From Cyanidioschyzon merolae (lineage: Eukaryota), in the NCBI GenBank assembly GCA_000091205.1, contig AP006485.2: 64,000 nt of DNA; one strand, given 5' to 3'. Under the pieces are notes generated by a model. That model saw only the letters and a list, made by a program, of their open reading frames with translations. It was not told where the DNA came from and made no database searches. Shown in pieces: positions 7,100-8,488 of this stretch (position 1 is the stretch's first letter; every line of letters starts with the position of its first letter). Position numbers and translations under genes: made by a program.

Positions 7100-8488
7100 C
7101 TACTTCTGCAAGTCGATACGGCTATAGCGCGCTCCTAATCGTGTGGCTTTCTGATAGAGATCCGCAAAAGCATTCCCGAACCCCTTATCTCCCAAGTTGC
7201 CCAGAGTGTCTACCGCTTTCGTTGCGTCTGCATCTGCAGCGATTGAGAATTCTGTTGCATTCTGTGCTTCGTGCCGATGCAGGCGGCTTGCAAGTTCTCG
7301 CAGAAAACGAGTGCTGAAGCGGTCCTTGCCGAGCGTCAACGAACGCACGGAGGTGTTCACGGCCACTGTCCTCGAGGCAGCAGGATCGCTGCGCGCTCGA
7401 CCGTACGTTACGGTGGCGATGTCCTCTGAGAGAATCGGCCCTGTTGACGAGGAACGCTCACCTCGGGCGGCAGTGCCTCGTGACGGGGCGGACGACCCCA
7501 GCGACTCTTCGAGACGCCTCAGTTCGCCAAGCGCTCCGATTATAAGGAGGCCTGCACGCGTTTGCTGCTCCCTATCATTCCTGGACACAAGGCCGGATCG
7601 CGTCAGAAGCACGCGCATGTCTTCTAGTCCCAGAGCGGCGTCGTTGTCGCTGGCATTGTCCTCGATGCCGTGCAGGAAGCGCCAGTAAGCCGGAACATCC
7701 TGAAGACGCTGCCAAACGAGTTGTTGTCTTTCTGCCGGTGCGTCCTCTCTGCCGTTCTGGACGCGTAATCGCGGACCTCCAGTAAGCTCCATTGCCACGA
7801 CGCCAGCGTAGGCTATGGTATCGGCCCAGGATACCTCTTTTATGAAAGGACGAATAGGCTCCAATGCCTTCAGCGCTTCTTGTAACCCCGATAGACCAGG
7901 TGCGCTGGCAGTCTTCCTAGGGCCGTTCTCTTGCAGCTTCGCCAAAACGTATCGAATAGAGGCGTTGCTACCCCCGACCTGGGTACTTTCGTCGAAGGTG
8001 AAGGCATCGGCAAGCGCCAAGCGTACGAAAGGTTCCAATAAGTGCGGCGACTGGGATAGAACGTTTCTTAAGTTCTGTTTCAGCCGGTTCAGGGTTGAAA
8101 CTCTGATTTCCTTATCTCCGTACCGGTTGACATCAAAGTCCACAAACGCGTGGGCAATCGGAAGCTGTCCGTCCCGAAGCGTCTCGGTTTGCGCGAGAAG
8201 GCAACCAGTGGAGAGCGCAAGCAGCGTGCGCAGGAACGCACGTCGAGAGGGCTCTACTGCAGACCGCCAACACAGACGCTGCGTTTGACGAGTGCCCGTG
8301 AAACGAAGCCGACTCGCACGCCATAGACGTATGCTATTCCGTCCAGTGCCTTGACCAAAGCTTGCTGATGAAGAACCGGTACGGGTCCAGTTACCACATG
8401 TGAACGCAAACGCCGGTTCCTGTGTCCGAAAAAGTGCCTCTTGGTGGCTCACGGCTGACGAGCACTCGAGCGGCGAGGCCTTCTCCAT
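7100..8488 (-). CDS. Class I heme peroxidase (ascorbate peroxidase) fold protein with both catalytic histidines substituted; long N- and C-terminal extensions
   Basis: VSWADTIAYAGVVAMELTGGPRLRVQNGREDAPAE matches APX ([34 protein letters not shown]). FGNAFADLYQKATRLG matches FFADYAEAHLKLSELG. The distal motif RLAWHSAG reads RLALADAF, and the proximal GGHTIG region reads SGLVSRN. Confidence 0.7.
   Translation of the reverse strand: MEKASPLECSSAVSHQEALFRTQEPAFAFTCGNWTRTGSSSASFGQGTGRNSIRLWRASRLRFTGTRQTQRLCWRSAVEPSRRAFLRTLLALSTGCLLAQTETLRDGQLPIAHAFVDFDVNRYGDKEIRVSTLNRLKQNLRNVLSQSPHLLEPFVRLALADAFTFDESTQVGGSNASIRYVLAKLQENGPRKTASAPGLSGLQEALKALEPIRPFIKEVSWADTIAYAGVVAMELTGGPRLRVQNGREDAPAERQQLVWQRLQDVPAYWRFLHGIEDNASDNDAALGLEDMRVLLTRSGLVSRNDREQQTRAGLLIIGALGELRRLEESLGSSAPSRGTAARGERSSSTGPILSEDIATVTYGRARSDPAASRTVAVNTSVRSLTLGKDRFSTRFLRELASRLHRHEAQNATEFSIAADADATKAVDTLGNLGDKGFGNAFADLYQKATRLGARYSRIDLQK

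Follow-up and report, generated by a model that had tools for sequence, protein, structure and literature searches.

Here, we identify a real, conserved pseudo-peroxidase encoded at positions 7100..8488 (minus strand, like all features given below) of the window, the 64,000-nucleotide stretch of Cyanidioschyzon merolae 10D DNA that was analysed. The protein has the fold of ascorbate peroxidase (APX), lacks the residues with which APX holds and activates heme, carries a conserved twin-arginine (Tat) motif, and is no lineage-specific oddity, since members of its family are distributed among red-plastid algae. The reading that we favor, with somewhat better than even confidence, is that it is a heme-free protein exported to the thylakoid lumen by the Tat pathway, where it would act non-enzymatically as the red-lineage counterpart of TL29/APX-L.

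The coding sequence is complete, with 462 codons plus a stop in an uninterrupted reading frame that opens with ATG and has an in-frame stop eight codons upstream. Its product shares 100% identity with C. merolae 10D BAM79074.1 / XP_005535360.1 / UniRef M1V6M4, of which BAM79074.1 bears the database name "cytosolic ascorbate hydrogen peroxidase". Between C. merolae and Cyanidiococcus pN in the mature region is 0.23 while pS, at 0.77, is saturated (pN is 0.51 in the presequence, residues 1-114), the gene order V-ATPase C / pseudo-peroxidase gene / PGDH is retained as conserved synteny, and transcripts of the orthologue have been recorded at TMM 85-103 (PMC10272599, Table 1). The intact reading frame, a pN far below pS, conservation of the gene and its expression led us to reject a pseudogene, and the gene is held under purifying selection. 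A tblastn search with pea APX as query found no second APX-like gene within the window; one canonical APX is reported for C. merolae (PMC8069737, Table S1).

A sequence-only reading of this DNA had recognized a class I peroxidase core in the protein, and several independent comparisons bear this out. The Pfam peroxidase model PF00141 matches with E 1.7e-15, limited to residues 137-268; the top sequence matches among solved structures are APX (E ~1e-10); and in hhalign the family profile pairs with active APX/APX-R-type sequences along APX residues 1-250, with E 1.5e-58 and a probability of 100%. The pairings that had been proposed with APX for VVAMELTGGPRLRVQNGREDAPAE and, toward the C-terminus, for FGNAFADLYQKATRLG with APX FFADYAEAHLKLSELG were both reproduced, and RFSTRFLREL pairs with APX FDNSYFTELL. 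Pfam and the alignments mark SWADTIAYAGVVAMELTGGPRLRVQNGREDA (residues 220-250; 7739..7831) as the best conserved part of the core, and alignment and model assign residues 390-462 (7103..7321) to the C-terminal third of the fold. An AF2 model built from 25 family sequences reaches pLDDT >90 across most of the domain, superseding a run with 4 Cyanidiales sequences alone (mean pLDDT 51.6), and is structurally nearer to APX/CcP than to TL29. With a significant sequence and profile match and the fold extending over the whole domain, the protein belongs to the class I peroxidase-catalase superfamily (PF00141).

The additions to this fold differ from those first described. In place of a single insertion of ~95 aa, the alignment gives three net insertions relative to APX, +22 aa (GRED to GL), +8 aa (VSRNDREQ) and +48 aa (past the proximal helix), for a total of +78 aa. 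The first falls in residues 253-286 (7631..7732), is confined to the Cyanidioschyzon clade, and forms two short helices in the model, with the non-conserved His273 among its residues. The largest, in residues 332-389 (7322..7495, placed by alignment and model), is family-wide and mostly of very low model confidence (pLDDT <50 at 341-366 and 372-382); it holds the conserved blocks TYG[KR] and AVNTS, and most relatives, unlike C. merolae, have a strongly acidic (poly-Asp/Glu) version of it. The protein's ends were redrawn as well. What had been taken for a long C-terminal extension shrinks to about 10 residues past the LSELG-equivalent (ARYSRIDLQK), since APX residue 250 corresponds to mature residue 342 of 348, and AF2 models this tail as a strand pairing with residues 116-118. 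At the other end, the 140-aa N-terminal extension consists of a 114-aa presequence followed by ~30 aa of a conserved, family-specific motif.

The distal helix RLALADAFTFD (residues 156-166; 7991..8023) aligns with APX just as the sequence-only reading had it, with R-L-A-W-H replaced by R156-L-A-L159-A160: Arg38 is kept, Trp41 is Leu159 and His42 is Ala160. On the proximal side, the claim that histidine is missing stands and its placement does not. RSGLVSRN (297-304) is not the equivalent of LSGGHTIG; its 'SGL' pairs with APX 'AMGL' (148-151), and the proximal helix is AGLLIIGALGELRRLEE (312-328), within the segment AGLLIIGALGELRRLEESLG (residues 312-331; 7496..7555) located by profile alignment to APX. 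In that alignment His163 becomes Leu320, Ser160 becomes Ile317, His169 becomes Glu327 and Arg172 becomes Leu330, so that nothing is left of the axial ligand, of the contacts to the propionates or of the Arg that binds ascorbate; Asp208 is conservatively exchanged for Glu413, and the insert stands in place of the Trp179 region. Both heme histidines are therefore absent under the corrected alignment too, and of the residues that mark a functional APX (EC 1.11.1.11), namely Arg38-Trp41-His42, the proximal His163 with Asp208 and Trp179, and Arg172, the protein keeps Arg38 alone.

Across the family, the canonical proximal column holds His in 0 of the 47 full-length members, which indicates that the lost histidines are not a local accident. 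The Trp41 column is I/L/V/M in all 47, His42 remains in nine, and Arg38 is retained only in the Cyanidioschyzon clade. No column in the alignment of these 47 sequences has at least 40% His, Cys or Met, which leaves no conserved alternative axial ligand. An APX-type fold without the distal and proximal His is probably not a peroxidase, as the sequence-only reading had anticipated and as the sequence, profile and fold evidence now support; a His-ligated heme peroxidase is very probably not what the gene encodes, and most likely its product holds no heme. It might instead still be a heme protein or peroxidase, with an unconventional axial ligand or non-covalently held heme and with Arg156 assisting catalysis. 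The retention of Arg38 in the Cyanidioschyzon clade and the conservative Asp208 to Glu413 exchange count against the heme-free reading. The proximal helix of that clade, however, has Leu at the canonical position and no His, Cys, Met or Tyr that is conserved, both the distal His and Trp and the contacts to propionate and ascorbate are lost, and none of the mature protein's four histidines (149, 273, 404, 406) is conserved; in addition, TL29 is presumed to be a Tat substrate (RR motif) though it is cofactor-free. We consider retained heme chemistry very unlikely in the C. merolae protein. In the Porphyridium/Pyropia red-algal subclade, which includes the Porphyridium orthologue KAA8496679, the distal His is kept and another His precedes the canonical proximal site by one helical turn, so the family may not be heme-free throughout.

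Targeting had escaped the sequence-only reading, and the Tat signal shifts the predicted location to the thylakoid lumen, away from the cytosol of the annotation. The N-terminal segment looks like a bipartite presequence in which a transit peptide is followed by a near-consensus Tat signal. Residues 1-75 (8264..8488; the end at 75 is approximate) form a putative stromal-targeting transit peptide, judged from their composition (Ser+Thr 24%, 11 K/R versus 4 D/E, pI 11.4, 'AFAF' present) and weak conservation, and are disordered in the AF2 model. Residues 76-114 (8147..8263), assigned as the Tat lumenal signal from motif and family conservation, comprise S81-R82-R83-A-F-L-R87, a hydrophobic region at 84-100 that is predicted to be helical, and the cleavage motif A112-H-A114. 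The positions of SRRAFLR, the hydrophobic helix and AHA are conserved family-wide: of the 42 members with an N-terminus, 36 keep RR, and 39 of 47 keep Ala114. In ochrophyte members the RR motif is preceded by a further hydrophobic leader that resembles the ER signal used by secondary plastids.

A heme-free pseudo-peroxidase could also reside in the stroma or elsewhere, if its RR were not a functional Tat signal. The Pfam TAT_signal model, the only Pfam match to residues 76-114, scores below threshold (E 0.06; 13.8 bits against a gathering threshold of 22.7), an NCBIfam search gave no Tat-signal match, and Arabidopsis APX-R, which has RR without an AxA site, is found in the stroma and plastoglobuli (PMC10669542). 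Against a stromal location, S-R-R-x-F-L-[KR] matches the Tat consensus exactly; the strict consensus occurs once in the window's six frames, in this very protein, where 0.11 matches per window are expected by chance; motif, hydrophobic region and AxA keep their positions in most members, from red algae to ochrophytes and chromerids; and sequence conservation starts exactly past the AxA site. We regard that location as improbable. The combination of transit peptide and near-consensus Tat signal predicts a thylakoid-lumen protein and not a cytosolic one, and we think it likely that the protein is lumenal.

That the gene encodes a functional cytosolic ascorbate peroxidase, as its GenBank name states, is scarcely credible. 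All that speaks for it is the database name and its use in red-algal stress transcriptomes, which count the gene as 'cytosolic APX' (PMC12112623, PMC10272599), whereas the catalytic and heme-binding residues are gone, a 114-aa presequence with putative transit peptide and Tat motif precedes the mature protein, and the 'cytosol' call in PMC10272599 was based on a mis-started, truncated gene model (P0005). On the sequence evidence the annotation is probably wrong on both counts, the product being neither cytosolic nor a peroxidase, and C. merolae and its relatives may thus have one H2O2-scavenging enzyme fewer than assumed.

The predicted mature N-terminus (residues 115-145; 8054..8146) carries the motif FVDFDVNRYGDKEIRVSTLNRLKQNLRNVLS, identified in the family alignment and present in neither APX nor TL29. 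G124, D125, E127 and R141 are invariant among 25 family members, YGD[KR]E occurs in 81 of the 150 best representatives, and the acidic DRYGDKE loop is the family-specific element with the highest conservation. Outside this motif, D161, D223, Q244 and D249 are invariant as well. We rejected a reading of DVNRYGDKE as an EF-hand because its spacing is unlike that of the canonical loop. In the lumen the protein might bind a ligand, a metal or a partner in some new capacity that has nothing to do with PSII; it could, for example, handle a lumenal cytochrome (c6 or c550) or a cation by means of its DxDRYGDKE loop and the acidic insert, much as Chlamydomonas APX2 is proposed to have a role in copper insertion into plastocyanin. 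The prominence of the loop, the poly-Asp/Glu insert of most members and a fold of the cytochrome c peroxidase type are consistent with such a factor, as are the proposal that a lumenal APX homologue acts on an electron carrier and the use of cytochrome c6 by red-lineage algae (both PMC10669542). The case is purely inferential, however, and in C. merolae the insert is non-acidic, the mature protein has a pI of 9.3, and there is no MxxM-type motif or conserved Cys, His or Met; we consider a binding role of this kind unlikely.

For the heme-free, Tat-exported lumenal protein that we favor, we propose the following course. The nuclear-encoded protein would enter the plastid by way of its N-terminal transit peptide, the twin-arginine signal would export it in folded form into the thylakoid lumen, and cleavage past A-H-A114 would yield a mature protein of 348 aa and 38 kDa that retains the entire class I (APX/CcP-type) fold without the parts that hold or activate heme. 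With His163, His42, Trp41, Ser160, His169 and Arg172 all replaced, this product would most likely be a heme-free, catalytically dead pseudo-peroxidase. Its non-enzymatic lumenal role would most plausibly be to assist or protect the photosynthetic apparatus, as has been proposed for TL29 with PSII; a specific association with PSII is a tentative suggestion by analogy, and a rather doubtful one.

Family members occur in red algae, ochrophytes and chromerids, share the DRYGDKE motif and the disordered insert as hallmarks, and are monophyletic at 99-100% in neighbor-joining (NJ) bootstraps with supports from explicit bipartition counting. TL29 is monophyletic at 100%, and the two groups are sisters in 51% (Kimura) to 20% (gamma 0.6) of NJ bootstraps, with a TL29 set that is angiosperm among the matches listed and includes no green-algal or charophyte APX-L. 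A homologue search with the family alignment returned mostly bacterial KatG word matches and added one sequence (P0041). The literature that we searched contained no earlier account of an APX homologue, lumenal or heme-less, from red algae or diatoms, and the red-lineage family is apparently both separate from TL29 and undescribed. We put at a little under even the chance that it is an ancient red-plastid family of Tat-exported, heme-free lumenal proteins that lost heme independently of green APX-L/TL29. To judge from its sequences, the red family appears to have lost the proximal His first, and in the green charophyte 'proto-APX-L' it is the distal His that is reported to have gone first (PMC8069737), which would make the orders of loss apparently opposite. 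If this is true, a lumenal peroxidase was turned into a non-enzyme twice in parallel, which would suggest that selection strongly favors some non-catalytic job in the lumen and would conflict with the published view that red algae have canonical APX alone. Published surveys list no other APX for red algae and trace APX-L back to streptophytes (PMC8069737, PMC10669542). The conservation, throughout the red plastid lineage, of an APX homologue that is probably heme-free and apparently lumenal implies either an earlier origin of APX-L or a convergent loss of heme. Its tractable genetics and near lack of introns make C. merolae convenient for finding the role of the abundant, enigmatic TL29-like lumenal proteins.

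Compared with canonical APX (pea 1APX, soybean 1OAF) and cytochrome c peroxidase, the C. merolae protein has replaced Trp41, His42, His163, Ser160, His169 and Arg172, has gained its three net insertions (+78 aa), and carries a predicted lumenal presequence where they are cytosolic or stromal. Two other class I peroxidase folds that are degenerate or heme-free come from unrelated contexts: neither the C-terminal domain of KatG (1U2J), a fused bacterial domain, nor the trypanosomatid pseudoperoxidase of Leishmania (5VIA) has lumenal targeting or the family's motifs. The analogy drawn by the sequence-only reading to plant APX-R and APX-L holds for the second and fails for the first. By HH score the closest active-type relatives are a Phe41-His42 group that we provisionally took to be APX-R-like (344, versus 265 for the Trp41-His42 APX group), and Chlamydomonas APX2, which bears a Tat motif, has been proposed as a lumenal protein (PMC10669542). 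However, APX-R (Arabidopsis APX6, Chlamydomonas APX2) is a heme-binding protein with its catalytic residues in place (PMC8069737, PMC10669542), retaining Arg38, Phe41, His42, His163, Asp208 and guaiacol peroxidase activity, and has an MxxM copper motif, whereas the C. merolae protein has neither this motif nor a conserved Met/His column.

The closest known analogue is TL29/APX-L (Arabidopsis At4g09010, PDB 3RRW; Chlamydomonas APX4), which resides in the lumen in association with PSII, binds neither heme nor ascorbate and has no peroxidase activity (Granlund 2009 and Lundberg 2011, as cited in PMC8069737 and PMC11496181). Both proteins have a class I peroxidase fold from which the heme-binding and catalytic histidines are gone, and both have an aliphatic residue at Trp41 (KLALNDAMTYD in TL29, RLALADAFTFD in C. 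merolae, with some ochrophyte family members reading LKLALNDALSY). Their twin-arginine presequences align, the RR of TL29 (HRRDVLK) pairing with that of the family in hhalign, and TL29 sequences match the C. merolae protein at E 2e-7 to 2.5e-9. The catalytic and ascorbate-binding residues whose loss characterizes APX-L/TL29 in the sense of Lazzarotto et al. 2021 are missing from the C. merolae protein as well, except Arg38, kept as R156, and the lumen targeting typical of that group is predicted here at the level of motifs. In contrast, TL29 has an insertion of ~25-30 aa before GRSDA that the red-lineage family is without, and has deleted the FDNSYF/Trp179 segment, of which the family keeps the equivalent in RFSTRFLREL; the 48-aa insert and the DRYGDKE N-terminal motif belong to the red-lineage family and not to TL29. 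HH scores are 176 between the family and TL29 and 199 between TL29 and the Phe41-His42 group, and the red-lineage family has lost the proximal His everywhere while keeping the distal His in some of its members.

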